64,000 nt of DNA from Planctomycetota bacterium. Its GTDB lineage: Bacteria > Planctomycetota > Planctomycetia > Pirellulales > UBA1268. This document shows, piece by piece, positions 885 to 56,283 of the stretch; the first letter of the stretch is position 1; every line of letters begins with the position of its first letter. Under the pieces are notes generated by a model. That model was not told the DNA's origin, searched no databases, and was given only the letters and a program-made list of their open reading frames with translations. The DNA is taken from positions 1,653 through 65,652 of the forward strand of contig JANNSZ010000061.1 in NCBI GenBank assembly GCA_031403195.1. Direction: 5' to 3'. A program made the translations under genes and the position numbers.

Positions 885-921
885 GATCGCTCGTGCCCAA
901 TCGGCACGGCCACAGGACGAC

Positions 922-7700: not shown

Positions 7701-8056
7701 CGCGAGACTTCCACCGTCTCGTTGCCCTCGATCCGCACCTCGACGACGAGATCGTCAGGCTGCGATGCCGGAAGGCTGCTCGCCTGAACCGGGGGCAAGG
7801 CCTGGATGCCCGCCGGCTCCTGGGCAGCGAGGCCTCGCGCGGCCGCCAGAACCGCGACCGCCGCGACGGCAAACCGACAGACGGACGCGAACGCGGCCGG
7901 GCGGAAGTGTGTGGCAGATGAAGACAAGGGATCGCTGCCGGGGGGAGATGTCGGCGAAAGCCGCGGAGGAATAGACGAGCGACCCGCACCCCCACAAGGT
8001 GAAAACTGCCCGCGGCCACCAGACTCGCGAGAATGGCCACGCCGGCGTTTACCCAA
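4751..8056 (-). CDS. bamA: outer membrane protein assembly factor BamA (Omp85/D15 family) with a long P/Q-rich linker
   Basis: 1101-aa ORF with POTRA-like repeats (VEVRIEGNETV..., IRYVKYVGN..., VRNVSFVGNSKF..., YRVGKINVKIKG...). The C-terminal 360 aa are a beta-barrel ending in FSFFVGFAR (aromatic terminal region), with a GAGVNSNAGLVGN start. The start is uncertain: TTG at 8056 or TTG at 7927, the latter giving MSSSATHFRPAAFASVCRFAVAAVAVLAAARGLAAQE. Confidence 0.85.
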   Translation of the reverse strand: MGKRRRGHSRESGGRGQFSPCGGAGRSSIPPRLSPTSPPGSDPLSSSATHFRPAAFASVCRFAVAAVAVLAAARGLAAQEPAGIQALPPVQASSLPASQPDDLVVEVRIEGNETVEVSRLPKLVTRAGQVFDPQSIEEDVRTLHKSRKFVDIHPKYVRVSDGVVVIFQVVERPTIRYVKYVGNYRHTGRTLRKKSEIDVGDAMDPYVIEEARRRIESFYHEKGYEAARVTTVEGSKTGDKGAVFLIDEGQSRKALWTSFVGNSIASDGRLLTQVKTKPGVFWFLGGDVDQAKIDADIEALTAYYRSLGFFQAKVGREVNVVREGIRDWTHLTYVISEGPRYNVRNVSFVGNSKFKTEFLERDIKLKGGEPFNQSKMDADLNLIRDIYGGRGFVFADIRADPRFLEEPGQLDLVYNVSEGQRYRVGKINVKIKGEHPHTKHGVVLNRLSLRPGDILDIRKLRDDERRLKSSSLFAADPAKGEGPKISFSKPEDDDVQLAGKPRVRGQSPDGEDDAVIDLVIFEEGVDTAEPAIALPASGVAPQAPPPSSMVHEPVWRGQSPGYPVTPQYAQQQYAPPQAMPPQYPQPQSPYAQPGAPVYGQPAAPAPGPQYAQPQPQYAPPQPQPFAAQQPPAWQPAPAVPVQPVQQTQPFAGQQPLLQPAVQQQPVSPWGGQPLAPAGPEALDYARMTAPPPPVYTVQQPVGGGQALPGLQGDPNQPPGFQPQAMPDFAGGSANVFPGNEPYVILDVEAEETQTGRLMIGAGVNSNAGLVGNIVVDEQNFDILRLPRSWDDIKNGVAFRGAGQRFRLEASPGTQLQRYMATFQEPYLFDTRIGMTLSASYYTRYFFDWAEARTGGRVGLGYQFQFAPDLSVNAGFRGESVDVFDSRIQAPDIVNMLGTNGVYGFSAGIIHDTRDSPFLPTQGHLATFEFEQVIGTFSYPRGILEGRQYFLMRERPDGSGRHVLSVGSVVGMSGPDTPAYDNFFAGGYNTLRGFTFRGASPRQAGPNGQLAIVGGPFQWLNTVEYLFPITADDSLRGVVFTDFGTVESNVSINNMRVAPGFGLRITIPAMGPAPIALDFAVPVVAAPFDSEQLFSFFVGFAR

Positions 8057-10123: not shown

Positions 10124-10696
10124 ATGCCTCTCGCTCGTCATCCCGATCCCGAAGAGATCGATTGCCTGATTCGCAACGGCGACCTCAGGACGGCGATCGA
10201 GCCGTACCTCGACGAGGCGGTCTACCAGATCGACTTTCGTCATCTGCCCACTGAGGCCGAGAACCGGTTTCTCGAATCGATGCTCGCCTGGGAGCTTGCT
10301 CCGATGGCTCAGGTGTCGCGGTGGTTCGAGCCGCCGCTGGCGATGCAGCCGGTCTGCACGCTCGACGACGATCAGGTGCGCGAACGGCTGTGGGATGTGA
10401 TCGAGCGGCTGCACGACAAGCGGATCGTGCTCGACTTCACCGACCACCTCTCGGATCGCGAGCTCTACTCGCTCATCCGTCGCGACATCCTTCCTGCGGT
10501 GCTCAAGCGGGTCGACCTTCCCGATAATTTCATCCACTGGGACTGTAGCGCCATGCTCGATGGCGACTCATCGGTCTGGCTCTCGTACTACGCCAGCGAG
10601 GAGGAGCGTGAGGAGTGGCGGCTCGAAGAGGGTCGTGATCCACCTCCCCGACGCATCCCGGCCCACCCCCGTGCGATGCCCGTCGCCGACGCCTAA
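10124..10696 (+). CDS. hypothetical protein
   Basis: ATG inside ORF 10031..10696 (MPLARHPDPEEIDCLIRNGDL...). The composition is protein-like and acidic. No family recognised. Confidence 0.5.
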   Translation: MPLARHPDPEEIDCLIRNGDLRTAIEPYLDEAVYQIDFRHLPTEAENRFLESMLAWELAPMAQVSRWFEPPLAMQPVCTLDDDQVRERLWDVIERLHDKRIVLDFTDHLSDRELYSLIRRDILPAVLKRVDLPDNFIHWDCSAMLDGDSSVWLSYYASEEEREEWRLEEGRDPPPRRIPAHPRAMPVADA

Positions 10697-10714
10697 GCGA
10701 CAAGGCTTCCGCGA

Positions 10715-10845
10715 GGGGCTGCCCACGTCGTGTCGCCGGCGTTGAAGACAAGCGCAGCCATGGATGGCGGAGCGCAGGCTCCATCGAGAGAGCGGAGGCC
10801 TGGAGGGCCGCAGCAAACGTCCGACGACACGACGTGGGCAGCCCC
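10715..10845 (+). repeat. structured interspersed element, family B, copy B1
   Basis: Outer arms GGGGCTGCCCACGTCGTGTCG ... CGACACGACGTGGGCAGCCCC are perfectly complementary. The core GCCGGCGTTGAAGACAAGCGCAGCCATGGATGGCGGAGCGC...GGCC-TGGAG-GGCC...GCAAACGTCCG aligns with the copies at 42626, 47138 and 56284. Confidence 0.8.
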
Positions 10846-10959
10846 GAGCCCCAAGCAGGCCGGCGGAAAATCCACCAGGGTGGGGAAATTTCACCCGGCG
10901 GCAGGCGGCGACCTTCCAGCGTATCCTGAAGGCCACCACCCCTCACCACAAACCCTCGG

Positions 10960-12063
10960 ATGGCCATCATGAATTTGTTGCGTCTTGCGCTCACCATTGC
11001 GGTTGCGACCACCACCATTGCCGCGGCCCTGCCAAGCCGCGCCGCCGACAAGGCAGCCGTGAAGGCAGCGATCGCCAAGGCCACAACGTTTCTCGAGGGC
11101 TGCCAGGAGGAAAACGGCAGCTTCAAGAATGAACTGGGCCCTGCAGTCTCGGCGCTCACGCTGACGGCGATCGTGAAAAGCGGCACGCCGGCCGACGCAC
11201 CGGTTGTGAAAAAGGGTATTGAGTACCTCATGACGTTCCGCCAGCCCGACGGCGGCTTCTACTCGCCTGGGTCACCGGTGGCCAACTACGAGACTTCGAT
11301 CGCCATGCTCGCACTGGCTGCCTGTAACAGCAACGGCTCGCTCGATAGCGAGATCAAGGGGGCCACGGCGTTTGTCAAGAAACTTCAGTGGGATAGCGAC
11401 GAGGGCAAGGGTCCCGATGACCCGGCCTTCGGCGGCGCCGGCTACGGCAAGAAGTCGCGGCCCGATCTTTCCAATACGCAGTTCATGATCGAGGCGCTGC
11501 GGACCGTCGGCGAGAGCGAGAACGATCCGGCCATCCAGCGGGCGCTGGTCTTTGTGTCACGCACCCAGAATCTACCTGGCCCCCACAACCCGCTGCCCTT
11601 TCCCGAGAAGAACCCCGACGGCGGCTTCTACTACACGCCTGCCAACGGCGGCGAGAGTCAGGCAGGCGAGACGGAGAACGGGGGCCTGCGAAGCTATTCC
11701 TCGATGACCTATGCCGGGCTCAAGAGCATGATCTTCGCGGGGCTCACGAAAGATGACCCGCGGGTGAAGGCCGCCACCGAGTGGCTCGCCAAGAATTTCA
11801 CGTTTGAGGAGAACCACGGCATGGGGCAGGCGGGGCTGTTTTACTTCTATCACACGGCGTCGAAGACGTTCGTTGTGCTCGGGGAAGACACCTTCACCGA
11901 CGCCCAAGGGAAGCAGCACGTCTGGCGGGATGAGTTGACGACAGCCATCGTCTCCCGGCAGAAGCCCGACGGTTCGTGGACCAACCCCAACGAGCGGTGG
12001 CTCGAAGGCGAGCCTGTCTTGGTGACGGCCTACGCGCTGTTGGCACTCGCGAATTGCCGCTAA
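10960..12063 (+). CDS. secreted prenyltransferase/squalene-oxidase-repeat (terpenoid cyclase fold) protein
   Basis: Signal peptide MAIMNLLRLALTIAVATTTIAAALPSRA. Repeated GGF/GSW motifs (DGGFYSPGS, DGGFYYTPANGG, PDGSWTNPNERW) with helical spacers are typical of the prenyltransferase-like repeat family common in planctomycetes. Confidence 0.72.
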   Translation: MAIMNLLRLALTIAVATTTIAAALPSRAADKAAVKAAIAKATTFLEGCQEENGSFKNELGPAVSALTLTAIVKSGTPADAPVVKKGIEYLMTFRQPDGGFYSPGSPVANYETSIAMLALAACNSNGSLDSEIKGATAFVKKLQWDSDEGKGPDDPAFGGAGYGKKSRPDLSNTQFMIEALRTVGESENDPAIQRALVFVSRTQNLPGPHNPLPFPEKNPDGGFYYTPANGGESQAGETENGGLRSYSSMTYAGLKSMIFAGLTKDDPRVKAATEWLAKNFTFEENHGMGQAGLFYFYHTASKTFVVLGEDTFTDAQGKQHVWRDELTTAIVSRQKPDGSWTNPNERWLEGEPVLVTAYALLALANCR

Positions 12064-12069
12064 CTGTCC

Positions 12070-12183
12070 GTGGAAAAAGCCGTCCATGGCCTTTTCCCAC
12101 GTGGCCGACCGCTGGAAAAGCCGAGGTTTTCCATGGTCGGCAGTCGCCGCATCGTGCGGCGGCAGACTTTTCCACAGTCTGCC
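12070..12183 (+). repeat. multi-hairpin 3-prime element, family A, copy A1
   Basis: Begins 6 nt after the stop at 12063. It contains four consecutive hairpins: GGAAAAAGCC-GTCCAT-GGCCTTTTCC; GCCGACCGCTGGAAAA-GCCGAGG-TTTTCCATGGTCGGC; CGCCGCA-TCG-TGCGGCG; GGCAGACT-TTTCCAC-AGTCTGCC. Related copies lie at 38345, 39771 (rc) and 51855 (rc). Confidence 0.85.
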
Positions 12184-12191
12184 AGGTTGCC

Positions 12192-12821
12192 TCAGGCAGC
12201 GTTTGGGGTGGCCTTGTAGAGGTACGGATTCATCGTCGGGTCGTTGTACATCTTCATCTGACGGAACACCCGCAGCGGGCGTTTGGCTGAGAAGATCTCC
12301 GCGAGGAGCCGGTCGACGGCAGCCACCAGATGATCCCGCTGGGCGTCGAGCACGACCAGCTTGTCGGCGGCCTTCTCGCGGTGCTCGGGCGTCGCGTCGG
12401 GCCGGTCAACCTGCTCACGCATGTGGTAGCGACGAAGCTCGAGGATCGAAAGACGATCGATCGCCGCACCAGGCGTCTCGGTCGCGGCCGGCGCACCGGG
12501 CGAGGCCACGACGCCGCGGGCGGCAAGCTCGGCGATGAGCCAGTCGTCCACCTTCTCGATCGCGTCATTGCGGGCCTGGTTGTAGCCGTCGATGGCCCGC
12601 TTCACCTGGGCGATGCGGGCGTCGGTGACATCCGGCGACCGGGCGATGTCTTCTTCATGCCACAGGAGAAAATTAAACCGGTGGAGGTCGCAGACCTTGC
12701 CGCGAAGTCCACCCTCGGAATGCGCGGGCTCAATCTCATGCCAGCGGGCCACGAGATCGGCGAGCAGAGTGTCGATGTCGGCCGTGGCGACGGGTGGATG
12801 GTGGGGGTGCGACGAGGCCAT
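12192..12821 (-). CDS. DUF4254-like protein (function unknown)
   Basis: 209 aa. The motif DLHRFNFLLWHEEDIAR followed by a helical region resembles what I recall of the DUF4254 family. It is the last gene of the ACP-KS operon, 45 nt after the KS stop. Confidence 0.55.
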   Translation of the reverse strand: MASSHPHHPPVATADIDTLLADLVARWHEIEPAHSEGGLRGKVCDLHRFNFLLWHEEDIARSPDVTDARIAQVKRAIDGYNQARNDAIEKVDDWLIAELAARGVVASPGAPAATETPGAAIDRLSILELRRYHMREQVDRPDATPEHREKAADKLVVLDAQRDHLVAAVDRLLAEIFSAKRPLRVFRQMKMYNDPTMNPYLYKATPNAA

Positions 12822-12866
12822 ACGAAACTCCTGGTGAGGCGCTCGGTGTCAGGTTCGTGTGCAGGC

Positions 12867-14102
12867 TCAGGCGGCGCGAAGCACAAGGCAGAGATTCGAG
12901 CCGCCGAACCCAAAGGAATTGCTGGCGGCGACCTTCACAGGGTGAGGCCGCGCGACATTCGGCACGTGGCACAGCCGGCATTCGGGATCGGGGTTGTCGA
13001 GGTTCACGGTCGGGGGCACCTGTTGCCGCTCGATCGCGCCCAAACAGGCGAGTGCCTCGAACGATGCGGCGCCACTCACGAGGTGGCCCGACATGCTCTT
13101 GGTCGAGCTCACCGGGATGCTGTCGGTCGCATCGCCGCAGGCCATGCGGATCGCACCAGCCTCGGCCACGTCGCCGACCGGTGTGCCGGCGGCATGGGCG
13201 TTGAAGTAGTCGACCTCGGAGGGGTCTACCTGGGCATCGGCCAGGGCCGCGGTGATCGCCCGGGCTGTCTGTGTCGGATCGGTGCTCGGCGCCACCATGT
13301 GGACGCCGTCGCTCGACATCCCGATGCCGGCCAGCTCACAGCGAATCCGCGCCGAGCGGCGGCGGGCGTCCGACTCCCGTTCGAGCACGAAGAATGCACC
13401 CCCTTCGCCCATGACGAAGCCATCGCGATCACGATCGAAGGGCCGTGAGGCTTTGGCGGGATCGTCGCTGCGTCGCGAGAGGGCGCGGAGATTGTAGAAG
13501 GCTGCGATCGCCGTCGGCCCTAGCACATCGCACCCACCGGCGACGCAGATATCGACCCAGCCGGCGTCGAGCCAGGTGCGGGCCAGGCCAAGGGCATAGC
13601 CGCTCGAAGCACAGGCTGCGGCCACGGCGACCGCAGGGCCCGCGATGCCGGCGCGGGCAGCCAGCCGCTGGTCCAGGGTCGGATCGCGACGCGATTCGAA
13701 GACGAACGTGCCTCCGTTTAAAAAATCGGCTTCCCATGTCTTGAAATGCTCGCCGCCGACGCCGAGCACAAGTCCGATCCGCGGTGCGGCCTCGGGATGC
13801 CCGAGGCCCGCATCGACAAGCGCGCCGATCACCGACGGGAGGCAGAGCTGTTCGAGGCGACCGAGCCCACGAAAGGTTTCAGGGTCCATGCCGAGTGGAA
13901 CAGGGATCTCGAGGACCGGAGCGGCAAACCGCGACTCGGTCCGCACCCGCGGGTCCACGTCGATCTCGCGCACGCCCGATACGCCAGAAAAGAGGTTGTC
14001 GAAGATCGTCTCGGTGTCACACCCGAGAGGAGACACGGCCGCCACGCCGGTGATGACAACACGCTCGCAGCCATTCCGTCTTCGCATCGCTTGCCCGCTC
14101 AT
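12867..14102 (-). CDS. beta-ketoacyl-ACP synthase, FabF-like (KS)
   Basis: RVVITGVAAVSPLG, active-site AAACASSGYALG, NAHAAGTPVGD, SSTKSMSGHLVSGAA and NSFGFGGSNLCLVL together give the Cys-His-His KS signature. Start taken at ATG 14102, which overlaps the upstream stop (ATGA at 14099-14102). Confidence 0.9.
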   Translation of the reverse strand: MSGQAMRRRNGCERVVITGVAAVSPLGCDTETIFDNLFSGVSGVREIDVDPRVRTESRFAAPVLEIPVPLGMDPETFRGLGRLEQLCLPSVIGALVDAGLGHPEAAPRIGLVLGVGGEHFKTWEADFLNGGTFVFESRRDPTLDQRLAARAGIAGPAVAVAAACASSGYALGLARTWLDAGWVDICVAGGCDVLGPTAIAAFYNLRALSRRSDDPAKASRPFDRDRDGFVMGEGGAFFVLERESDARRRSARIRCELAGIGMSSDGVHMVAPSTDPTQTARAITAALADAQVDPSEVDYFNAHAAGTPVGDVAEAGAIRMACGDATDSIPVSSTKSMSGHLVSGAASFEALACLGAIERQQVPPTVNLDNPDPECRLCHVPNVARPHPVKVAASNSFGFGGSNLCLVLRAA

Positions 14103-16885: not shown

Positions 16886-17833
16886 ATGTCCATGCCGTTC
16901 AACCGCCGTACCGCCCTGGCTGCCGGAGCCGCCGCGCTGGGCGCTGCGTCACCGTTCGCCACGGCCCTCGCCGCCGCACCGCCCGAACGCGCCCACCCCG
17001 AACGCGCCCACAAGGGCCGCATCAAGCAGTCGATCGTCGCCTGGTGTTTTGAGCTGTTTGGCGAGAAGTGGAATATCGAAAAGACATGTCAGGTCGCGAA
17101 AGACCTGGGCTGCGTGTCGGTTGAGCTGGCGCCGCCCGCGGCCTGGGTCACGATCAAGAAGCACGGGCTCACCTGCGCGATCACACCCAACGGCATGCCT
17201 GGCGCTCCCTTCGTGAAGGGACTCAATAACCCCCGCTACCACGAGGAAGTGATCGCCCGCACGACCGAGATGATCGATGCTGCCGCAGAAGCCGGGTTTC
17301 CGAATGTGATTGCGTTCACGGGATTCAAGTGGCGGGATGCGGAGGACCCAAAGAGCGGTGAGATCTCGCTCGAGGAAGGGGCCGACAACTGCGTGAAGGG
17401 TCTCAAGGAGCTCTGTGCGCGGGCCGAGAAGAAGGGCGTCACGATCTGCATCGAGCACTTGAACACTCGCGATGACTCACATCCTTTCAAGGGCCATCCG
17501 GGCTATCAGGGAGATGACATCGATTACGTCGCCGACATCGTGCGTCGGGTGGGCAGCGATCGCGCCAAGGTGCTTTTCGATATCTACCACGTTCAGATCA
17601 TGAATGGCGACGTGATCCGCCGGATCGAGCAGTGCAAGGACGTCATCGGCCATATCCACACCGCCGGCAACCCTGGACGTTGTGAGCTCGACGACACCCA
17701 AGAGATCCTCTATCCGCCGATCATGCGAAAGCTCATCGACATCGGCTACCAGGGCTATGTGGGCCAGGAGTTTATCCCGACCCGCGACCCGCTCGCCGGG
17801 CTCCGGGAAGCGGTCGTGCTCTGCGACGTCTAA
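16886..17833 (+). CDS. Tat-signal xylose-isomerase-like TIM-barrel protein (hydroxypyruvate isomerase-like family)
   Basis: Twin-arginine-like N-terminus MSMPFNRRTALAAGAAALGAASPFATA. KGRIKQSIVAWCF, ICIEHLN, FDIYHVQIMNGD, HIHTAG and GQEFIP are motifs of the AP-endonuclease-2/TIM family. Confidence 0.85.
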   Translation: MSMPFNRRTALAAGAAALGAASPFATALAAAPPERAHPERAHKGRIKQSIVAWCFELFGEKWNIEKTCQVAKDLGCVSVELAPPAAWVTIKKHGLTCAITPNGMPGAPFVKGLNNPRYHEEVIARTTEMIDAAAEAGFPNVIAFTGFKWRDAEDPKSGEISLEEGADNCVKGLKELCARAEKKGVTICIEHLNTRDDSHPFKGHPGYQGDDIDYVADIVRRVGSDRAKVLFDIYHVQIMNGDVIRRIEQCKDVIGHIHTAGNPGRCELDDTQEILYPPIMRKLIDIGYQGYVGQEFIPTRDPLAGLREAVVLCDV

Positions 17834-17842
17834 AGCTGATTT

Positions 17843-17879
17843 CACGCACGCCGGGCCATCCATGGCCCCGGCGTGCGTG
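17843..17879 (+). terminator. near-perfect 17/18-bp palindrome directly after the stop at 17833 (terminator-like hairpin, no U tract)
   Basis: CACGCACGCCGGGCCAT-CC-ATGGCCCCGGCGTGCGTG. The centre GCCATCCATGGCC is the same as the loop region of hairpin 1 in family A repeats. Confidence 0.4.
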
Positions 17880-18288
17880 CCCGGCCTCCGCCGGGAGGGA
17901 ACACGGCCCTCCAGGCCTCGCGCACGTCGTTGCTACACCGATCTCACCTGTCTCCCATCCATGGCCCCGGCGTTCGGTGCGCCGGTGGCAGAGGCAGGCC
18001 GCATTGGTTCGCCGGTCGGTGACATGTGGCCGCACGCGGCTCTTTCAGATCGCCGCCTTCGCGACGTGAACCCTTCGGGTCACCTGCGGTGTGCGAGTGT
18101 GCTCTCGTGGATGATGGTGCGCCGCTTGGCCGCGCAATAGATGCTCGGCGGCTGCGCGTGCCCCCGACCGACTCCTCAGCATCGTGAGCTCAGGGGAGGC
18201 CGCCGCGGTTGCGAACCGTCCGCAGTCCCCCGGCTTCCGCCGAGGGCTTGTATCGGGCAAACGACGGACATAGGCCGAGGAACAACAC

Positions 18289-18517
18289 GTTCCCACGACA
18301 CCTCCCGCATCGCGTGGGCCAAACTCCTCGCCCGGATCGCCGAGGCGTTCCCGCTTGTGCGCCAGGCCTGAAAAACGGCGCTCCCGCGGAGGATTGTGGG
18401 GGCGTCCGAGGCCATCCGTCACGTCGCAAAACAGCCGCAGACCGACTCGCCTACCATCCATCGATGGTCGTCTGCCATCACCCTGTTGCGGAAGTGTCGT
18501 TGACCGTCCTATCCTTC
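18289..18517 (+). mobile_element. IS91-like element remnant, copy 1 (3-prime end only, internally deleted)
   Basis: 18289-18357 encodes ...HDTSRIAWAKLLARIAEAFPL and matches 20785-20854. 18358-18517 matches 21114-21274 almost base for base. About 259 bp present in copy 2 are missing. Confidence 0.6.
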
Positions 18518-20328: not shown

Positions 20329-21081
20329 GTGGAGCATTTCGGCCGCGTGATCGGCGGTCGCGACGACAAGCCCGAGCGAATCCGCTACACGCTCCCGCGG
20401 CACAGCCGCGGGCAGTGGGTCGGGCCGGGGCGGAACAAGAAGCCGACGGCTCCTGACGCGCAGGGCGTGGTAAACCTCTCGCCGTCTGAGTTTCTCGATC
20501 GCCTTGCGGATCTGGTGCCGCCGCCTCGAAGGCACCGGCATCCCACCGGCAGGATGCCGGATTGCGGTCGAGCCAGACCTTGGCTCTGGCATTGACCGCG
20601 AGGCGGCAGGGGACATGGATGGACCTGCCGCCCTGGAGCAAGCTATGGCGTGTTTGCACCGAATCATCCGCTGCGACCGCTTGTGACGGCGCTGGCGATT
20701 GGGAACGCCGGGAAGTCCGCGGGCACGGCGACCAGTGAGCCTCACGCAGGGAGGCTACCCGCGGAAGCACTCGCTGCCGAGCGTCGTTCCCACGACACAT
20801 CCCGCATCGCGTGGGCCAAACTCCTCGCCCGGATCGCCGAGGCGTTCCCGCTTGCGTGCCCGGCCTGCGGTGGCGACATCCGGCTCATTGCCTTCATCAC
20901 CGATCCGGGGCCAATCAGAAGAATCCTCGCGCACGTCAGCGAGCCGGTGGAGCCACCTCCGGTCTCTCCCGCGCGAGGGCCCCCGACTGACTGGGGTGAG
21001 CTCGTGCAGGTCCTGGACGACCGCGATGTCGTCCAGGACTCGTCCGATGAGCTGCCCGTGACTGACATCCACTCGCTCTGA
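20329..21081 (+). pseudogene. IS91-family (Y2 HUH rolling-circle) transposase, C-terminal part only, frame-disrupted
   Basis: ORF 20329..20595 carries ...RIRYTLPR...GVVNLSPSEFLDRLADLVPPPRRHRH. After about 115 nt of unrelated sequence and a frame change, ORF 20650..21081 continues (Y)GVFAPNHPLR...RIAWAKLLARIAEAFPLACPACGGDIRLIAFITDPGPIRRILAHV. Both blocks match the conserved C-terminal region of IS91-type transposases as I remember it. No N-terminal catalytic part is present. Confidence 0.6.
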
Positions 21082-37281: not shown

Positions 37282-38337
37282 ATGTCGGCTCGCATTGTCA
37301 TCGGGTTGGGAGTGATCATCGTCGCCGGCTGGCTCGTTGTGGCCGATGCGGCGCCGGGTCGCGGCTTCTTCGGCAGCCTCACGCGTTCAAACCAGCCCTC
37401 GGGCAAGGTCGGCGGTCCGGTACCCGATCGTCCGCCGCTCGTTCCGGGCACCGGCACACTCGTCAAGAACGTGGTGGATGACTTCGAGAACGAGAAGTGG
37501 AAGTGGTACTACAACCACCCGAAGAGCTCCGAGGAGCAGGACAAGCGAATGCGCGGGCCGCTCGGCAAGAGCGCCAACGGCCGTTGGTTCGAAGGCCCCA
37601 TGCGGGGCACACCCGACGTGGTCAAGCGGGTCGAGCTTCCCGCGCCTGGCATCGAAGGCAGCAGCCACGGCCTCCTCATGGCCAGCCTCAATGCGGGCGT
37701 GCCAGGACGCGTCAGCTACAAGATGCAGCAGGACGACCTGGTCTATAACCTCGGCAAGTTTGCCGGCCGGGGCATGTCGGCCGGCGACAGCCCGAGCATC
37801 GTGGTCCGCGTGTACCTGCCGCCCTATGAGCAGTGGGAGAAGCGCACTGGGCCGAGCTTCGGATTCCGAGCTGGGTGCTTCACCCACGCGACCATCACGG
37901 GCGAAGACCATCCCGACAAAGGCAGCTACGGAGTCGAGGAGTATTGGCCGGGCATGTTCATCTGCTTCGAGAACTCGGCCGACGGCAAGTTCGAGAAGGA
38001 TGGAGCCTTCATCCGAATCCGCGGTGGCCGCAACGGCGGCGAGATCATGGGCACGCGGATCGAGCAACTCGGCTGGTGGACTCTCGGCATGTCGTTCACG
38101 CCCGACGGCGTCGTGCACTACTTCGCAAGCCCCGGGGTAGACAACCTCACGCCCGAGGATCACATGACATCGCAGTATCCGTATGCGTATCGCACGGAGT
38201 GGGTGAAGACGTTCTTCTTCAACGTCTGCACGCACGACGACAGCAAGACTTGGAGTACGCCCTGGATCGTGGACGACCCGCAGGTGTTCTTCGTGAAGCG
38301 TCAGCAGATGGCCGCCCAGCCGAAGACGAAGCGGTAA
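37282..38337 (+). CDS. secreted hypothetical protein
   Basis: ATG 37282 is preceded by GAGGGAG. N-terminus MSARIVIGLGVIIVAGWLVVADA is signal-like. The body is Trp/Tyr-rich and globular. No family recognised. Confidence 0.6.
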   Translation: MSARIVIGLGVIIVAGWLVVADAAPGRGFFGSLTRSNQPSGKVGGPVPDRPPLVPGTGTLVKNVVDDFENEKWKWYYNHPKSSEEQDKRMRGPLGKSANGRWFEGPMRGTPDVVKRVELPAPGIEGSSHGLLMASLNAGVPGRVSYKMQQDDLVYNLGKFAGRGMSAGDSPSIVVRVYLPPYEQWEKRTGPSFGFRAGCFTHATITGEDHPDKGSYGVEEYWPGMFICFENSADGKFEKDGAFIRIRGGRNGGEIMGTRIEQLGWWTLGMSFTPDGVVHYFASPGVDNLTPEDHMTSQYPYAYRTEWVKTFFFNVCTHDDSKTWSTPWIVDDPQVFFVKRQQMAAQPKTKR

Positions 38338-38344
38338 CTCCGCC

Positions 38345-38457
38345 TGGGAAAAGCCATCCATGGCCTTTTCCCACGTGGCCAAACCTGGAAAAGCCGAGGT
38401 TTTCCAGGTTTGGCGACCGCCGCTTCCTGCGGCGGCAGACTTCATTCACAGCCTGCC
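38345..38457 (+). repeat. multi-hairpin 3-prime element, family A, copy A2
   Basis: Begins 7 nt after the stop at 38337. It has the same four-hairpin layout as A1. Hairpin 2 is changed compensatorily (GCCAAACCTGGAAAA-GCCGAGG-TTTTCCAGGTTTGGC). Confidence 0.85.
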
Positions 38458-38464
38458 GCGCGCA

Positions 38465-39745
38465 TTACCGCGACGTACGGGAAAAACCGCTCGCCGGGGG
38501 CATGAGGCTTTCCAAGCCCGTGCCCTCGCAGCGGTATTCGAGGGCGTCGGACCCGCCGGGAAAGAGGGTGCAGGTCGCCGACCGTCCGGCGTCGGAGCCC
38601 CGGCCCTCGACTTCGATCTTCCACGCCTCACCGTCGCGCCGCCACGTCGCTTCAGCGAATCGGCCATCGGATGAAAAGAGCCACGAGCAGATCTCCTGCC
38701 GCTCGGGATCCCAGCCGATGATTTCGGTCAGCTCGCGAGGTGACATTCCGCCAGGAGGGAGCAGGCCCGGGATCGACCCGTCGCCAGCCCGCGGCCGCTC
38801 GGCGGGCGCGTGATCCGGCTGCACTGTGTGGCACCGCACAAGGAAGCCGCGGCCGGGTGCCCAGTCGCAACGGGCTCCGGCCACGACGCCTGGGCCGACA
38901 TTCTCCCAGCGGCCCACGAGCCAGGCCAGTTCGTCGAGCGGCCGAGGTGTCGCTTCCAGCTTCGCAGCCGCAGCCTCGCGAACGCTGTCGAGCATCCACT
39001 CGCCTGCATGCCGTACCGCCACCGCTGAGAACCGGCTGCCGATGACTTCACCATCGGCGTACGCCACCCGCGAGACACCGTCGATGACGGCGACGTCGTC
39101 CCGAATCGGCCTGATGGAGGCGACGTCGATGTCGATCGTGGCAGAGGGCTCATTGGCGAAGAGCTTGGTGAAGAGCGTATGAACGGCCTCGCGGCCCGAG
39201 GTCACCTCGCCGCTGTCGAGGTTCACATTTTCGGCGGTCGGAGCCCAGTGGTCCGCCGCGGCCACGGCGTCGTGACGATTGAAGGCCCGCAGGTAACCGG
39301 CGAGCATGTCGCGAATCTCGGCCATGGGCTGATCGACCGTGGCGTGCTCAAGGTGGCCCGGCTCCTCGGCGCTTGTCAGCTGCACGGTGCCACCGGTGGC
39401 GGTGGCGATGCGTGCCGGGACCCGCCCCGCAGCAGGGTGCGATACCCAGTTCAAGCCGCGGCCTGCGGGTTGATCGGTGACGGTCGCATGGCCCATGTCG
39501 GCCACGCGAAAGGCCTTGGCTTGTCGAATTACGACAGGCACACGCCCAGCACTTCGCGGCTTCGAGCGTGTCGTCGCACGAGGCAACTCGGGCTCCGCGG
39601 CCAAGGCCTCGAGACGGCCGGCGGCGGGCTTGGTGCTGGACGAGCATCCCGTCACGACGGCCACTCCCAGCGTGACCGCGATGAGCGAGGCGAGCGACGA
39701 TGACCAAAGGCCATCGCGGCAAGCAGAAGCGGCGGCGTGCGGCAC
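38465..39745 (-). CDS. lipoprotein with SnoaL-like/DUF4440 (NTF2-fold) domain
   Basis: GTG 39745 lies 9 nt after AGGAGG and gives VPHAAASACRDGLWSSSLASLIAVTLGVAVVTGCSS (lipobox). MAEIRDMLAGYLRAFNRHDAVAAADHWAPTAENV...GREAVHTLFTKLF is the SgcJ/EcaC/SnoaL-like pattern. The first 78 codons of track ORF 38465..39979 are read-through of repeat A3. Confidence 0.7.
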   Translation of the reverse strand: MPHAAASACRDGLWSSSLASLIAVTLGVAVVTGCSSSTKPAAGRLEALAAEPELPRATTRSKPRSAGRVPVVIRQAKAFRVADMGHATVTDQPAGRGLNWVSHPAAGRVPARIATATGGTVQLTSAEEPGHLEHATVDQPMAEIRDMLAGYLRAFNRHDAVAAADHWAPTAENVNLDSGEVTSGREAVHTLFTKLFANEPSATIDIDVASIRPIRDDVAVIDGVSRVAYADGEVIGSRFSAVAVRHAGEWMLDSVREAAAAKLEATPRPLDELAWLVGRWENVGPGVVAGARCDWAPGRGFLVRCHTVQPDHAPAERPRAGDGSIPGLLPPGGMSPRELTEIIGWDPERQEICSWLFSSDGRFAEATWRRDGEAWKIEVEGRGSDAGRSATCTLFPGGSDALEYRCEGTGLESLMPPASGFSRTSR

Positions 39746-39770
39746 GGAACAAACCCTCCTGAGTGAACTA

Positions 39771-39878
39771 GACAGCGACAAATTTTTGGCCGCACGATGC
39801 GGCGACTGCCGACCACGGGAAACCTCGGCTTTCCGTGGTCGGCCAAGTGGGAAAAGGCCATGGACGGCTTTTCCCGCG
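39771..39878 (-). repeat. multi-hairpin 3-prime element, family A, copy A3 (reverse orientation on + strand)
   Basis: The reverse complement reads GGGAAAAGCCGTCCATGGCCTTTTCCCACTTGGCCGACCACGGAAAGCCGAGGTTTCCCGTGGTCGGCAGTCGCCGCATCGTGCGGCC. Hairpin 4 is degenerate. Confidence 0.8.
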
Positions 39879-39982
39879 GACAACTCGTTCGTGGCGGTTG
39901 CGGCCGACCTCCTTTGGCCGGCCGTTCCGCGAGCCAGCGATCCTACCCGAGGGCAGCCAAGTCGCACAGTCAGGGACACCGA

Positions 39983-40315
39983 TCACTCACCTGGTATTGA
40001 CCGTGATCCCTGGGAAATCGTCGGTCCGAAACGGCGTGAGCGGAAGCCCGGCCCCGGAATACATATTGCAGACGGGATTATCTGCCCAGGCATAACAAAC
40101 CGCCAAGGGGTCGGCCACATCACAGGGCCGCCGTACTCAGCGATCGGATCGAGTCGCACGTCCCAGCGGCCGTCTGCTTCGGCGGTCGTCGCATGCGACT
40201 GCCTGGCGATCGACACGGTCACTGCTCCGCCGGGTGCGGCCCGTCCCCATACGCGGTTCGCCAAGCCCTGCTGGAGGGAACACGCGTCGAGGCGATCGCT
40301 CGACCGCGAGAGCAT
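39983..40315 (-). pseudogene. N-terminal remnant of a sialate-O-acetylesterase-like (SASA/DUF303) gene
   Basis: [51 protein letters not shown] matches the usual N-terminal pattern (MVLQR...WG.A.PG..V.V...G....A.AD..G.W...L.P...GGP) of these esterases. The sequence then degenerates and stops after 110 codons. No catalytic GQSNM region is present. Confidence 0.4.
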
Positions 40316-40785: not shown

Positions 40786-41213
40786 TTCCAGGCCCTCCCC
40801 CGATGACGCTCACAGCATGTGAACAATGGCCCCATATGACTTCCTCATTATGGATCGCGCGGCATCCCACCGCAACTCGCCGGACGGTGCTGCGGCCCCA
40901 GAAAGGCAGTTTGCAGGCTATGACCCCGGGACACGACACAAGCGGCCCAGAAAAAACTTGGCCACCGAGGCCATGCCAAGATGACCCCCCCTGCTGGGGG
41001 ATCGCCAGCAGAGTCAACGCGTTTTCACTGATCGGACCCTTGAATGGCGGTTAAGTCGACGTAATCTATCTAAGTTATCAGGCGGCCGGTTGTTCGGTCG
41101 TCGCAGAGCGAGGTCTCTTCGACCGACCGACCGGCGTCAGGCGCGTGCGCAAGGCAAACCTGTCGGGTCCGTTCAGCGTTCAGTGTGTGTTCTCCCTACT
41201 TTTGGAGGTTAGC

Positions 41214-42518
41214 GTGGTTCGAAAGATTTTGGCTTGTTTGATGCCGGCTGTCGCCGTCGTCGCCATGTGCACGAGCACGTGGGCTGGCGACTGCGGTGGC
41301 TGCGAAGGTGGTTGTGGTGATGCCAGCGCATGCTGCGGCACCAAGACCGTGTACCAGAAGCAGATGGTCACCGAGATGAAGTCGGTCACCTGCACGGAGT
41401 ACACCACGGAGACCCGCGAGAAGACCGTCACGGTCATGAAGCGGGTTCCGAAGACGGAAGAGAAGACCCGGATGGTCACCGTCTGTGTCCCCGAGACGAA
41501 GACGAAGACCTGTAGCTACACGATCAACAAGAACGTCACGGAGACCAAGACGTGTGAGTACACGGTCCAGGTTCCGTACACCGAAGAGGTCGAGCAGACC
41601 TACACGGTGATGACCCCGGTCGCGGAGAAGAAGACCTGCACCTACACCGTCATGGTGCCGGTGAAGGAAGAGAAGACCTGCACCTACATGGTGAAGGTCC
41701 CTTACACCGAAGAGGTCGAGCAGAAGTACACCGTGATGGTGCCCTACACCGAAGAGGTGAAGGCCACTCGGAAGGTGATGAAGCGGGTTCCGAAGGAAAT
41801 CACCAAGACCGTGCAGGTCCGTGGTGGTCACTGGGAGACCCAGATGGTGGAAATGCCGTCGTGCGGCACCGACGCCTGTGGCTGCCCATGCCCGCCGAAG
41901 CAGTGCTGCAAGAAGGTCTGGGTTCCGACGTGTGAGACCAAGGAAGTCACCTGCATGACGTACGAGTGCGTCACCGAGGAAGTTCCTTGCAGCTACACGG
42001 TCACCAAGTGCAAGCCTGAAGAGCGGACCCGCAAGGTCTGTGTCTCCAAGTGCCGTGATGAAGAGCGGACCCGCACCTACACCGTCACCAAGTGCGTGCC
42101 GGAAGAGCGGACCCGTGAGTACACGGTCACGAAGTGCGTGCCAGAGCAGAAGACTCGCATGGTCAAGGTCACCAAGTGCAAGGCCGAGACTCGCACCCGC
42201 GAGTACACGGTCTGCAAGTGCGTGCCGGAGACGATGACCAAGGAAGTCTCGTACACCGTGATGGTGCCTACGCAGAAGGAAGAGAAGTACACCGTCACCA
42301 CCTGCGAGTGCGTGTCGGAAGAGAAGACCGTGTCCTACAAGGTCTGTGTTCCGGTCTCGGTCACGAAGGAAGTGCCGGTCACCAAGTGCGTCATGGTCGC
42401 CGTTGAGGTGCCATGTGGCGACTGCTGCGGCAACAACTGCTGCGGTGGTGATTGCTGCTGCGACTCGTGCGACTGCTGCGACTCGGGCTGCAAGAAGAAG
42501 CGCGGTTGCCGTCGCTAA
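41214..42518 (+). CDS. YTV-repeat, Cys-rich secreted protein (planctomycete envelope protein family)
   Basis: GTG 41214 lies 6 nt after GGAGG. Signal peptide VVRKILACLMPAVAVVAMCTSTWA. There are more than 15 degenerate repeats of the type (C/E)xYTVxxCVPExxTRE / YTVMVPYTEEVEQK. Three Cys clusters occur: CGGCEGGCGDASACCG at the N-terminus, CGTDACGCPCPPKQCC in the middle, and CGDCCGNNCCGGDCCCDSCDCCDSGC at the C-terminus. Confidence 0.85.
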   Translation: MVRKILACLMPAVAVVAMCTSTWAGDCGGCEGGCGDASACCGTKTVYQKQMVTEMKSVTCTEYTTETREKTVTVMKRVPKTEEKTRMVTVCVPETKTKTCSYTINKNVTETKTCEYTVQVPYTEEVEQTYTVMTPVAEKKTCTYTVMVPVKEEKTCTYMVKVPYTEEVEQKYTVMVPYTEEVKATRKVMKRVPKEITKTVQVRGGHWETQMVEMPSCGTDACGCPCPPKQCCKKVWVPTCETKEVTCMTYECVTEEVPCSYTVTKCKPEERTRKVCVSKCRDEERTRTYTVTKCVPEERTREYTVTKCVPEQKTRMVKVTKCKAETRTREYTVCKCVPETMTKEVSYTVMVPTQKEEKYTVTTCECVSEEKTVSYKVCVPVSVTKEVPVTKCVMVAVEVPCGDCCGNNCCGGDCCCDSCDCCDSGCKKKRGCRR

Positions 42519-42595: not shown

Positions 42596-42625
42596 AGGCA
42601 TTCGCGCCGAACGCTCGGGACTGCC

Positions 42626-49135: not shown

Positions 49136-50539
49136 GTGGCTGACGGGGCGACGGCTGGAGTTGATGTCCTCATCGCTGAGGACAGCCGCATGCAGGCGAA
49201 GATTCTGCAGAAGCGGCTCACCGACGCCGGTCACACCGTCCGCTGGGCAGAGAATGGGTCGCTCGCGCTCGGCATGGCTCGCGAGCGACGGCCCGACATC
49301 ATCGTCTCGGATATCGAGATGCCGGTGGCGACCGGGTACGACTTCTGCAAGGCCGTGAAGTCCGACCCGGCGCTTCGCAGCGTGCCCTTCATCTTGCTGT
49401 CCACACTCTCGGACCCGATCGACATCATTCGGGGACTCGACGCGGGCGCCGACAACTACGTCACGAAGCCCTATGAGCCCGACTACCTCCTCGGCCGAAT
49501 GGCGGCGCTGCTAGCCACGCCGCTCGGTGACGAGGACGATGCTACCGCCACCACGCTTGAAGTCACGCTCGCCGGCCAGAGCTTCAAAGTGCGAGCAGGA
49601 CGCCAGCAGGTCTTGAACCTCCTCGTGTCGACGTTTGAAAACGCCGTCACCACAAACAAGGAGCTCATGGTCGCCAATCAAGAGCTTTCAGTTGCCCGCG
49701 ACCGCCTCGAGCAATCGAATACGGACCTGGTCAGCCTTAATGCCGAGATTTCGCGGATCAATAGCCATATGGTCCGCGACCTCGAGGCGGCGGCAAAGGT
49801 CCAGCGTTCCTTGCTGCCCGCCGATGACGTGGCCTTTCCCTCGCTCGATGTCGCCTGGCGGTACGTGCCGTGCCAGGGCCTCGCTGGCGACTTTCTGAAC
49901 ATCTTCCGACTCGATGACGAGCGGATCGGGCTGTTCGTCGTGGATGTGAGCGGCCACGGCGTGCCCTCATCCCTGATGGCGGTCACGGTCGGCCGGTTTC
50001 TCACGTCGAAGGTCTCTGACTCCTCAATCCTCGTGCGGCAAGGGCCCGCTGGCAGCGTCGTGATTGCCTCGCCAGCCGAAGTGGCCACGCAGCTCAACAA
50101 GCTCTTCCAGGCTGATGAGTTTTCGGGGCTCTATTTCACGATTCTCTACGGGGTCCTGCACGTGCCGAGTGGTCGGCTCGACTACGTTTCCGGCGGGCAC
50201 CCAGCGCTCGTGCGGATTCCAGGAGCCGGCGGGCCGCCAGAATTTCACGGGGCAGAGGGCTTTCCGATCGCCTTTGTGCCCGATGTCGAGTACGAGCAGC
50301 GGACGCTCGAGCTGCGACCGGGCGACCGGATCTATCTCTATTCCGATGGCGTGCCGGAGGCGATGGACAAAGACCGCGAGCCGTATGGCGAAGAAAAGAT
50401 GGCTGCATTCCTGGATGGCAGCCGGGAAGGTCCGCTCGATGCGAGCGTCGCTGGCCTCCTCGAACAGGTCGAAACCTGGTGTCGCCCACACGGCCCGCTC
50501 GACGACATCACGATCCTGGGCGTGGAGTGGCGGCCATAA
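49136..50539 (+). CDS. response-regulator receiver + PP2C/SpoIIE-type serine phosphatase (RsbU-like)
   Basis: REC domain: VLIAEDSRMQAKIL...DIIVSDIEMPVATGYDF...KP. Coiled linker. PP2C domain: GDFLNIFRLDD, FVVDVSGHGVPSSLMAV, YLYSDGVPEA, DDITILGVEW. Confidence 0.9.
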   Translation: MADGATAGVDVLIAEDSRMQAKILQKRLTDAGHTVRWAENGSLALGMARERRPDIIVSDIEMPVATGYDFCKAVKSDPALRSVPFILLSTLSDPIDIIRGLDAGADNYVTKPYEPDYLLGRMAALLATPLGDEDDATATTLEVTLAGQSFKVRAGRQQVLNLLVSTFENAVTTNKELMVANQELSVARDRLEQSNTDLVSLNAEISRINSHMVRDLEAAAKVQRSLLPADDVAFPSLDVAWRYVPCQGLAGDFLNIFRLDDERIGLFVVDVSGHGVPSSLMAVTVGRFLTSKVSDSSILVRQGPAGSVVIASPAEVATQLNKLFQADEFSGLYFTILYGVLHVPSGRLDYVSGGHPALVRIPGAGGPPEFHGAEGFPIAFVPDVEYEQRTLELRPGDRIYLYSDGVPEAMDKDREPYGEEKMAAFLDGSREGPLDASVAGLLEQVETWCRPHGPLDDITILGVEWRP

Positions 50540-51779
50540 TCGACGAGGATTCGGCAGGAGGCTGGGCATCGCCCAAGAGCGGCCACAGTGTATCGATGCG
50601 ATCGGTGAAGATGTCGCCGATGAGAATGTCGGTGATGAGTGCCTTGGCCGCAGCATGCTGGCGGACCACCTGTCCGAAGTTGAGGCCGTCGTAGAACGCA
50701 CGGACGAGCTTTCGCATGCGGTCCATGCCCGTGAGGTAGTCGGGCCCCCAGCCGCCCAGCGCGAGCGCCGACGTGTCGCCCCGGTCGAGCCCATCGGCGA
50801 TCGCGTCGGCGGCCAGCGCGCCGCTCTTGAGGGCGAGTAACACGCCCGACGAGTACAGCGGGTCGAGGAACCCGAGGGCATCGCCCACGAGCACCCATCC
50901 GTCACCCGCCACCTGCCGCGAGCGGTAGGAATACTCCTTGGCCACACGGAAAGGTTCGGTGCGGGTGGCCCCCGCAAGCCGTGGCACGAGCCCTGGACAG
51001 CGGGCCAATTCCTCGCCGTAAATCGCCTCCGAATCTTTCGAGTGACGTCCCTGGAAGAGATACGAAAAATCGGCGACAACCCCCACGCTTGTGATGTCGT
51101 CGGCGAGCGGGATGTACCAGAACCAGCCCTTCTTCCCTTCGAGCTGGAGGACGAGCGTGGCGCCAGCATCGCGGCCACACTCCCGCGCCGCCCCCTTCCA
51201 ATAGGTCCAGATGGCTGCCTTCTTGAGATCGGGGTCCCATTGCCGGAGCTCCAGGCGGTCTTGGATCAACCCGCTCTGACCCGCGGCGTCGACCACGACC
51301 CGGCACCGAACGGCTCGCTCACCCCCCGACTCGTCAGCGACTCTCACGCCAACGGCTCGGCTGTCTTCAAAGATCACGTCGAGAACACGCACGCCCTCGT
51401 GGACATCGACGCCCTTGGTCCGGGCGTTATCGAGGAGGAGTGCGTCAAAATCCTGGCGTGTCACCTGCCACGTACGGGAGCTCTCGTGGTCTTTGTAATC
51501 GGCAAAGTAAAACGGCGCCGAAAGCTTTCCATCTTCAGAGACAAATTGAACACTGTGCTTTTCGACAAACCTACTCCCCTGCATGTGAGGGAGAATGCCG
51601 AGCCGCTCGAGCACCCAGAACGTCTCCGGGATGAGCGATTCGCCGATGTGGTACCGAGGAAACCTTTCCCTCTCAAAGAGCGCGACGGAGTGGCCTCGCT
51701 CGGCCACAAGCGTGGCCGTCGTCGCGCCAGAGGGCCCACCACCGATGACCACCACATCCGGCTCGGCCTGACGAATCAT
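50508..51779 (-). CDS. FAD-dependent oxidoreductase (geranylgeranyl-reductase / flavin-halogenase-like family)
   Basis: ATG 51779: MIRQAEPDVVVIGGGPSGATTATLVAERGHSVALFERERFPRYHIGESL (GxGxxG dinucleotide fold), and later GDALGFLDPLYSSGV. The upstream 124 codons of the track ORF run through repeat A4. Confidence 0.85.
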   Translation of the reverse strand: MIRQAEPDVVVIGGGPSGATTATLVAERGHSVALFERERFPRYHIGESLIPETFWVLERLGILPHMQGSRFVEKHSVQFVSEDGKLSAPFYFADYKDHESSRTWQVTRQDFDALLLDNARTKGVDVHEGVRVLDVIFEDSRAVGVRVADESGGERAVRCRVVVDAAGQSGLIQDRLELRQWDPDLKKAAIWTYWKGAARECGRDAGATLVLQLEGKKGWFWYIPLADDITSVGVVADFSYLFQGRHSKDSEAIYGEELARCPGLVPRLAGATRTEPFRVAKEYSYRSRQVAGDGWVLVGDALGFLDPLYSSGVLLALKSGALAADAIADGLDRGDTSALALGGWGPDYLTGMDRMRKLVRAFYDGLNFGQVVRQHAAAKALITDILIGDIFTDRIDTLWPLLGDAQPPAESSSIMAATPRPGS

Positions 51780-51854
51780 CGTGATACTCCCGAGGCCCGG
51801 CTGGCGGAAACGGCTAGCCATGAAGGCTAGGCGCTCCGCCGGCCGGCGTCCAGG

Positions 51855-51978
51855 GACAGACTGTGGCCGGTCGCCTGATACAGTCTGCGCCGCACGATGC
51901 GGCGGTCGCTGACCATGACAAACCCCGGGTTTGTCATGGTCAGCCGAGTGGCCAAAGACAGGGATCGCGGAGGGCCAC
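51855..51978 (-). repeat. multi-hairpin 3-prime element, family A, copy A4 (divergent variant)
   Basis: The reverse complement starts 3 nt after the stop at 51982. Hairpin 2 is GCTGACCATGACAAAC-CCGGG-GTTTGTCATGGTCAGC, hairpin 3 is CGCCGCATCGTGCGGCG (identical to A1), and hairpin 4 is CAGACTGT-N15-ACAGTCTG. Confidence 0.75.
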
Positions 51979-51981
51979 GAA

Positions 51982-52359
51982 CTAGCTGTTCTCGAACTTC
52001 CGCAGGGCCTCAAGCGTCGCCAGGGCCCGCTCAACGCCGCCCAGGGCGCTGACAACCTTCTTGGCTTCCACGAGATCCTCGAGCGTGATGTTCGAGGCCT
52101 TCTTCGCCCGGCCGGCCTTCGCGCCCGCCTTCGCGGTCGCACCATCGGCACCGCCAGACTTTCGACGGCGACGGGGGCGGAAACCCATGCGCTTGAGGAC
52201 CATGCTCACCTGGGGCGAGGAAACCTCGACGCCCTGCTTCCGGAGCACTTCGATGATCGTCACGGGACGCGGCTTCTCGTTCTTGTTCTTCATCGCGGTC
52301 GCTATTTTGCGGATTTCCTCGGACTTGTTCATGTCCTTGGAATTCTTTGTCTCTGCCAT
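51982..52359 (-). CDS. small basic protein of unknown function
   Basis: 125 aa, Lys/Arg-rich (MAETKNSKDMNKSEEIRKIATAMKNKNEKPRP...RRRRKSGG...AKAGAKAGRAKKAS). It is preceded by an unusually AT-rich 170-nt spacer with GGAG 13 nt before the ATG. Confidence 0.6.
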   Translation of the reverse strand: MAETKNSKDMNKSEEIRKIATAMKNKNEKPRPVTIIEVLRKQGVEVSSPQVSMVLKRMGFRPRRRRKSGGADGATAKAGAKAGRAKKASNITLEDLVEAKKVVSALGGVERALATLEALRKFENS

Positions 52360-56254: not shown

Positions 56255-56283
56255 CGCTCCTCCGGCAATCCGGCCTCCGCGAG

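Follow-up and report, generated by a model that had tools for sequence, protein, structure and literature searches.

A large four-hairpin repeat family of Pirellulales that behaves like a small mobile element and often ends in the stop codon of a neighbouring gene

Copies of the repeat in the window

The 64-kb stretch of Pirellulales DNA analysed in this work, hereafter the window, contains five copies of an interspersed repeat that we call family A, all of them recognised by the covariance model R1. Four had been placed by a first-pass annotation of the same DNA, and all four are present: a pattern joining the loop of hairpin 2 to hairpin 3 has four matches in the window, where the number expected is 0.00. 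The first copy, c1 (12060..12185, plus strand, 140.6 bits), is complete. Its left terminus is CTAA, of which the TAA (12061-12063) is the stop codon of the gene 10960..12063; its hairpins H1 to H4 occupy 12069-12101, 12104-12141, 12145-12161 and 12162-12182 of the plus strand, and its right terminus is degenerate (CCAG), with the stop of the convergent gene 12192..12821 lying 6 nt beyond. The copy c2 (38334..38459, plus strand, 121.6 bits), also complete, has the left terminus GTAA, which likewise provides the TAA stop (38335-38337) of the gene 37312..38337, and a decayed right terminus with the stop of the convergent gene 38465..39541 located 5 nt beyond it.

The remaining copies are on the minus strand. 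The copy c3 (39765..39887, 99.6 bits) lacks hairpin 4 as well as the right terminus and has a degenerate left one (CGAG); it is situated between co-directional minus-strand genes, about 100 nt after the ORF 39983..40315 and upstream of 38465..39541. A divergent subfamily is represented by c4 (51853..51985, 73.1 bits), with a different H1 and an enlarged H4, whose left-terminal CTAG (51985-51982) contains the TAG stop of the gene 51982..52359 and which is followed by the co-directional gene 50508..51821. The fifth copy (20522..20645, 48.3 bits, E = 4e-11) is also divergent: its stems are entirely different, but the order of four hairpins is kept and the loops (CCATCCATG, GCCAAGG and CATCCTG) are conserved, and its ortholog in the close relative L138 (GCA_031413915.1) shows three differences over about 124 positions. 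An isolated hairpin-1-like module (GGGCCATCCATGGCCC) gives a partial match at 17833..17904 (plus strand, 22.6 bits), and its loop motif is also found at 10757 (minus) and 17954 (plus). The orientation of the five copies, read along the window, is +, -, +, -, -; because it alternates, it is not dictated by the direction of replication. As had been proposed, the ORFs 38465..39979 and 50508..52151 read through copies of the repeat, and the N-terminal extension of the former is false, since alignments of its protein with homologues begin at residue 1 of the shorter form of 358 aa.

The window holds other repetitive DNA. A second repeat, family B, forms a long hairpin of about 130 nt at 10715-10845, 42623-42752, 47133-47272 and 56274-56421 and is also widespread in the collected loci; the copy at 10725-10834 is missing in L138, where only a short outer hairpin (GGGCTGCC...GGGCAGCCC) is found. 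The segments 18288-18517 and 20785-21274, 2.5-2.8 kb apart, are 95-98% identical, and beside the latter the window has about 280 nt more than L138. Periodic repeats of 42 nt (14 residues) extend over 41497-42240 within the ORF 41145..42518, which evidently encodes a repetitive protein.

Boundaries, inverted ends and hairpins

Copies lined up on their ends define a conserved unit of about 127 nt, CTAG-CTGTCCGTGG...CCACAGTCTGC-TAG, without coding capacity of its own. Its boundaries are sharp: the information content rises abruptly at the C-T-A-G preceding CTGTCCGTGG and falls after GTCTGC-T-A-G. The unit is wider than the element first delimited, as it runs from the C before the stop codon (12060, 38334 and 51985) to 3 nt after GTCTGC. 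The stop codon that had been noted 3-7 nt upstream of c1, c2 and c4 is indeed adjacent, but this TAG or TAA belongs to the left terminus of the element itself.

The left end is CTAGCTGTCCGTGGAA and the other end is the reverse complement of TTCCACAGTCTGCTAG. These terminal 16-mers are imperfect inverted repeats of the kind seen in MITEs, whose terminal inverted repeats measure about 15-30 bp; CTAGCTGTCCGTGGAA and the reverse-complemented right end, CTAGCAGACTGTGGAA, match at 13 of 16 positions, for which our own binomial estimate gives a chance probability of about 6e-6. CTAG closes both sides, being exact in 26 of 67 left and 27 of 66 right ends, while the remainder are one-step variants; some copies have a GTAG terminus.

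Between the ends, four adjacent local hairpins follow one another in a fixed order, with covarying stems and conserved loops. The copies c1 to c4 align over about 130 nt and have folding z-scores of -4.0 to -6.5, with the four hairpins previously described in c1, c2 and c4 and three in c3. Compensatory substitutions, which had been proposed for hairpin 2, are borne out by an alignment of 54 copies (A2) under the four-hairpin structure: 93.1% of the cells pair and 19 of 39 pairs are changed on both sides, values that none of 500 shuffles reached on any measure, while slid controls pair at 36-48%; the shuffles take no account of relatedness, and shared descent makes the cell counts overstate the number of independent events. 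Hairpin 3 is uninformative in this respect because the search pattern had fixed it. In divergent subfamilies whole stems are replaced, while the hairpin order and the loops, CATCC(A)TG in H1 and H3 and GCCRAGG in H2, are kept.

A role of these hairpins in the sense-strand RNA, as had been suggested, is not supported by the only available test. Among the stem mismatches, 39 would be G·U in the sense RNA and 42 (A·C) would be G·U in the antisense RNA, a strand symmetry that we read as a constraint on DNA complementarity and not on the RNA of one strand. The reverse complements fold equally well, both as RNA (z = -4.5 to -6.4) and as DNA, so that folding energy is uninformative about the strand. 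That the element is not a classical intrinsic terminator, for lack of a U tract, agrees with our scans of c1 and of a consensus copy for classical terminators and promoters: no site with a G+C-rich hairpin followed by a U tract was found at c1, and the single marginal match in the consensus copy has a stem that coincides with no hairpin of the element; the T run directly behind it belongs to the 3' arm of hairpin 1.

Size and distribution of the family

In one scan of species-representative genomes, the pattern of hairpin-2 loop and hairpin 3 was found at 86 loci in about 25 Pirellulales/Planctomycetota MAGs, and the model R1 gives 100 matches in the collected loci in addition to the five in the window; many of these copies were ascertained by the pattern itself, which fixes the hairpin-2 loop and hairpin 3. 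Further copies occur in the flanks at a density of roughly one per 40 kb. A small, non-coding unit of 127 nt with this number of dispersed copies is what is expected of a MITE, for which the usual size is about 70-300 bp. When each copy was compared with the others, the nearest neighbour came from the same MAG in 21 of 42 cases, against 3.0 expected, which points to genome-specific subfamilies.

At gathering thresholds no Rfam family matches the window, and the best match at permissive thresholds, to the opposite strand, scores 24 bits where 52 would be needed; a search of a plasmid collection gave no match. The family is apparently a previously undescribed, large four-hairpin repeat family of Pirellulales. 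A few of the MAGs with many copies are labelled Candidatus Kuenenia (CAZCHF01, CAYZHH01) or Chitinophagaceae/Chitinophaga (CAZRKH01, CAZMOU01). These taxonomic labels of the bins may well be wrong, given that CAZCHF01 shares its gene order with the window and is about 80% identical to it.

Position relative to genes and stop codons

The gene context was tabulated for 105 copies from the collected MAG loci and the window, with gene calls that are approximate because they come from a crude codon-usage finder built for this analysis. Convergent genes flank 32 of the 105 copies; 31 lie between co-directional genes in sense and 13 in antisense orientation, 7 between divergent genes and 3 inside a gene whose ORF reads through them, and for 19 one flank was not determined. 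Compared with the background spacers (18% convergent, 62% co-directional and 20% divergent), family A is over-represented between convergent and co-directional genes and under-represented between divergent ones (chi-square p = 1.6e-6).

The orientation is biased and not fixed. Between co-directional genes, the 31 sense and 13 antisense copies depart from equality (p = 0.01), and so do the copies whose terminus serves as the stop (18 sense, 4 antisense, p = 0.004). The first-pass annotation had held that the element is always in sense orientation, which the antisense copies contradict; within the window, the fifth copy appears to be antisense to its neighbouring genes, the nearer gene call being weak, and c1 and c2 are also 5-6 nt from the stop of a convergent gene at their other end.

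In about 37 of the 105 copies the upstream gene takes its stop from the left terminus, and in about 20 a convergent gene takes its stop from the right one (CTA), with both ends acting as stops in five; about half of the copies thus have a terminus that is a stop. REPs, too, lie mostly behind genes and supply TAG stops from a terminus. Among the background stops, TGA accounts for 73% and a CTAG context is found in just 12 of 346. The CTAG termini are conserved whether or not they are used as stops, which indicates that CTAG belongs to the element or to its target and is not a product of stop selection. This tetranucleotide is about 12-fold depleted in the window, with 17 occurrences against 210 expected from the base composition; 12 of the 17 are inside predicted genes and only one is a stop.

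Presence and absence among relatives

Of 49 metagenome loci, most preserve the pair of genes on either side of c2, and only one has a family member. In the 15 syntenic loci that we examined at this site, the convergent stops are 5-66 nt apart without any element between them. The closest relatives end both genes with TAG, at the codons where they also end in the window, whose 127-nt spacer holds the element; the context before insertion was GTAG, not CTAG. Exact-protein look-ups for the neighbours of c2 found nothing on record, and the best hit of a homologue search for closer relatives has only 85% identity. At the site of c3, 48 of 49 related loci are without any family member and the single match, in L093, is upstream of the same gene. 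Further differences between relatives are the presence of TAG and the element in L078 against TGA and no element in its orthologue L015, and a copy in L020 at a site that is empty in the window (28996-29033). Nested and tandem mosaics, with copies inside or adjoining one another, are also found.

Three copies are read through by the gene in which they lie: L055 3012-3144 (gene 552-3947), L073 5656-5788 (gene 5341-7998) and L002 651-785 (gene 3-2966), and each host ORF gains about 44 residues. The first two genes are orthologous and encode DNA polymerase III alpha (dnaE-like); the copies occupy different positions, neither being shared by the other genome, one of them in sense orientation within the HHH_6 domain and one in antisense orientation within the PHP domain. 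The gene in L002 encodes a DUF2126/transglutaminase protein.

The close relative L138 is about 96% identical to the window over the aligned stretch, with blocks of 95-99%. Its ortholog of c1 (10634-10786) shows no differences between the start of hairpin 2 and a point past the right end, and its hairpin 1 carries an extra mini-hairpin of 21 nt (TGACCCGCAAGCGGGCGTGCC); L008, L018, L057, L076 and L084 contain a subfamily that is distinguished by a comparable additional hairpin (GCCCGCGGACGCGGGC). The homology between L138 and the window stops exactly at the left terminus of c1, where L138 has 2.29 kb more (10780-13069, corresponding to 12059-12063). This segment, located between the left end of c1 and a squalene-cyclase-like gene whose last codon and stop are CTG TAG in L138 and CGC TAA in the window, contains a gene of 468 aa and weak repeat matches. 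We considered this gene as a possible transposase and rejected it, as it has only a weak Planctomycete-extracellular motif and weak phage-coat matches. The short-read (Logan) contigs L001 (which ends at 3339), L137 and L139, from the same organism as the window, all end inside c1, the latter two about 39 nt after a DUF4254 gene; independent contigs that stop within the same copy indicate that the repeat breaks assemblies.

Where orthologous copies could be compared, they are well preserved: two pairs are 97.6% and 96.9% identical, against 72.9% and 85.0% at the third codon positions of the adjoining gene. This could reflect purifying selection, homogenisation among copies or re-insertion, and it makes a decaying parasite unlikely unless copies are homogenised or re-inserted.

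Comparison with known repeat families

Among the functions first proposed for the element, a REP-like one agrees with copies that are interspersed, numerous, sharply bounded by inverted-repeat ends, polymorphic, nested or tandem and sometimes intragenic. Di Nocera et al. (2013, PMC3733652) report REPs from Planctomycetes, R. baltica among them. The GTAG REPs are found mainly in convergent and unidirectional spacers, at most about 20 nt from 3' ends, and their terminal TAG is often itself the stop of the flanking ORF (PMC3733652); they form dimers and clusters (BIMEs/REPINs), are mobilised by RAYTs and have in-frame copies in DNA polymerase and repair genes such as DnaE/DnaE2 (PMC3733652). Family A resembles them almost point for point in its spacer preference, proximity to 3' ends, TAG stops, tandem copies and copies in polymerase genes. 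However, GTAG REPs consist of a single 20-40-nt palindrome with GTAG at one end, whereas the family-A unit has 127 nt, four non-identical hairpins, 16-nt inverted ends and CTAG at both ends, and while the former are linked to RAYT, no such association was seen for family A in the collected loci. In unit size and tag it falls outside the strict definition of REPs and BIMEs, that is, a single 20-40-bp palindrome and an unpaired GTAG or CGTC tag at one end; in size and inverted ends it conforms to a MITE, with a putative target duplication and a putative parent element.

The Correia/NEMIS elements of Neisseria, ERIC of Yersinia and RUP of pneumococcus (IS630-Spn1) are similar to family A in their length of 100-150 bp, their non-coding nature and their terminal inverted repeats; they also share with it gene adjacency, co-transcription, occasional in-frame copies and insertions into other repeats, and probably TA-containing insertion sites. 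Unlike these elements, which form one long end-to-end hairpin, family A has four local hairpins with conserved loops. To our knowledge, the systematic use of a terminus as stop codon has not been described for any of the three. For the bacterial MITE RUP and the IS630 family, TA is duplicated at the insertion sites (PMC2229807, PMC2170065). The CIR repeat of Caulobacter is likewise intergenic, with a predicted fold of several arms and a conserved motif in a loop (Delihas review, PMC2229807), but it is unrelated in sequence, contains a GANTC methylation motif, is only partly MITE-like and has no reported relationship with stop codons (PMC2229807). Rickettsia palindromic elements (RPE) resemble family A in that some copies lie in frame inside essential genes and are translated (PMC3733652); they differ in their CGTC tag, and in family A the intragenic copies are a minority (3 of 105).

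Proposed mechanism and alternative explanations

Family A behaves like a small mobile element rather than a dedicated 3'-UTR RNA. We consider it probable (about 0.65) that it is a non-autonomous mobile DNA repeat of the MITE or REP/BIME kind that has spread within Pirellulales genomes. According to this proposal, the element would integrate at (C)TAG or TA sites, carrying or regenerating CTAG on both sides; most CTAGs inside genes would not tolerate an insertion, so that the surviving copies would gather at TAG stops and in short 3' spacers, where the terminal TAG would restore the stop of the gene and could later drift to TAA or TGA. CTAG-bearing ends together with survival only at harmless (C)TAG sites would explain the adjacency to stops without an RNA function. 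The constraint on the hairpins would act on the DNA, which might form single-stranded or cruciform hairpins or offer palindromic sites to a protein. Against the proposal, the bias in orientation, whether overall (31:13) or where the terminus is the stop (18:4), does not follow from a palindromic target, and at c2 the sequence before insertion was GTAG.

As regards the mobiliser, the 0.86 Mb of collected DNA yielded no autonomous element whose ends match, the long-range pairing of end motifs in the collected loci recovered only ordinary copies, and the genes between inverted pairs of copies are ordinary housekeeping genes. CTAG at both ends fits a duplication of TA or of up to 4 bp and could equally be part of the ends, and the flanks of the filled and empty pairs are too diverged for a target duplication to be read at family-A sites. 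Matching non-consensus end tetranucleotides were also tried as a sign of duplication and discarded, as the four identical pairs found are about the number that we estimate for chance. A preference for CTAG is characteristic of IS630, and a 4-bp YTAR duplication of IS5; a DDE enzyme of either type would be one candidate and an HUH/RAYT-type enzyme another. Enzymes of the IS630 type duplicate TA (PMC2170065). Integron attC sites were rejected: the ends CTAGCTG... and ...TCTGCTAG differ from the RYYYAAC ... GTTRRRY core sites, and the copies are dispersed among unrelated housekeeping genes in all orientations instead of forming co-directional cassette arrays beside an integrase.

Family A is itself a target of insertion. 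An IS4-like insertion sequence, with a 403-aa DDE_Tnp_1 transposase and 17-bp ends (AATCCTGTTCGGCACGG) unrelated to those of family A, is inserted in the hairpin-1 loop (GCCATCCATGGC), of which about 10 bp are duplicated. Such insertions were located in L056 (399-1969) and L033 (1092-1693), and also in L054 (around 188) and L057 (around 82); the one in L033, in a comparable position, has been reduced by deletion to about 590 nt. The situation is similar to that of IS1397, which inserts in the loops of E. coli REPs.

An alternative chemistry for the same kind of mobile repeat, which we regard as possible though less favoured, is that of a composite resembling REPs and BIMEs. An HUH tyrosine transposase (RAYT/TIRYT) would recognise the hairpins, cleave at the terminal YTAG and move the element in single-stranded form, in contrast to a DDE-type MITE, which would insert with duplication of TA or CTAG. 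Each terminus presents YTAG followed by a hairpin, in inverted orientation, and some copies have GTAG; the distribution, the supply of TAG stops and the insertions in polymerase genes match those of GTAG REPs, and Rhodopirellula baltica, of the same order, has been reported to have many tyrosine transposases with flanking repeats (PMC3733652). Hairpins that are held complementary as DNA and have conserved loops, and the hairpin loops that serve as insertion targets in these genomes, point towards such a single-strand chemistry; the inverted ends point towards a MITE. On the other side, the tag is CTAG and not GTAG or CGTC, the unit is a 127-nt array of four different hairpins and not a 20-40-nt palindrome, and no RAYT-like ORF was found in the collected loci: a tblastn search of the 0.86 Mb with an approximate E. 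coli RayT query gave one weak match, to an unrelated protein. The order +, -, +, -, - within 64 kb also misfits an insertion strictly dictated by the replication strand, and an IS200/IS605 mode of this kind was rejected for that reason. The compensatory changes themselves could have arisen without selection, by template switching during replication that corrected quasi-palindromes in master copies whose products were inherited by many; this we consider improbable. In its favour are the strand symmetry of the pairing, the largely genome-specific stem variants, in which few events stand behind many cells, and a shuffle control that ignores relatedness. It would hardly account for the many distinct versions of the H1 and H2 stems, even among the five copies of the window, for loops that are conserved while stems turn over, or for orthologous copies that are conserved overall, unpaired parts included.

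A different explanation, which seems unlikely to us, is that family A is a host-selected module of the sense-strand transcript 3' end, whose hairpins and loops, placed directly behind the stop, would be bound by a protein or would obstruct exonucleases or ribosomes; the outcome would be mRNA stabilisation, protein-dependent termination or REP-like translational down-regulation, and mobility would be a mere route of distribution. Published REPs are thought to act as RNA elements (PMC3733652). In family A, sense copies outnumber antisense ones (31:13, p = 0.01, and 18:4, p = 0.004, among those that supply the stop), spacers are used unevenly (p = 1.6e-6), loops are retained while stems are replaced across subfamilies, and orthologous copies are 96.9-97.6% identical, against 73-85% at synonymous positions; all of this speaks for such a role. 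The location bias is, however, expected of any small mobile element under selection against insertion in promoters and coding regions, and if selection acted on a single-strand-specific RNA, G·U mismatches should be accepted more readily than A·C, whereas both are equally represented (39 and 42) and both strands fold equally well. Furthermore, 13 copies are antisense, 7 divergent and 3 intragenic and translated, 48 of 49 orthologous loci manage without any copy, and the element has neither a U tract nor an Rfam family. There is nevertheless room for a host role, in view of the preferred orientation, of loops that are conserved and of orthologous copies that evolve slowly, and we can speculate, although we hold it unlikely, that family A is a domesticated, protein-recognised gene-end module with a built-in stop codon, under purifying selection across species. 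Its loops CATCC(A)TG (present twice) and GCCRAGG would then be putative binding sites of a dedicated factor, and the module might mark or insulate 3' ends, for example by factor-dependent termination between packed convergent genes, or as topological or nucleoid sites.

Implications

For annotation, a mobile DNA repeat of this kind has immediate consequences: family A gives rise to false N-terminal extensions and recurring pseudo-peptides, breaks short-read assemblies and supplies real stop codons, and gene callers for Planctomycetota should mask it. The covariance model R1 and the more than 100 copies are a sufficient start for a genome-wide census. These repeats are found in a phylum whose transcription-termination signals are poorly known. 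A rare target that contains a stop codon, such as the about 12-fold depleted CTAG, could funnel a mobile element to the ends of genes and so spare the genes themselves. With its conservation above that of synonymous sites and its orientation bias, family A offers a tractable case for studying how repeats turn into host functions.
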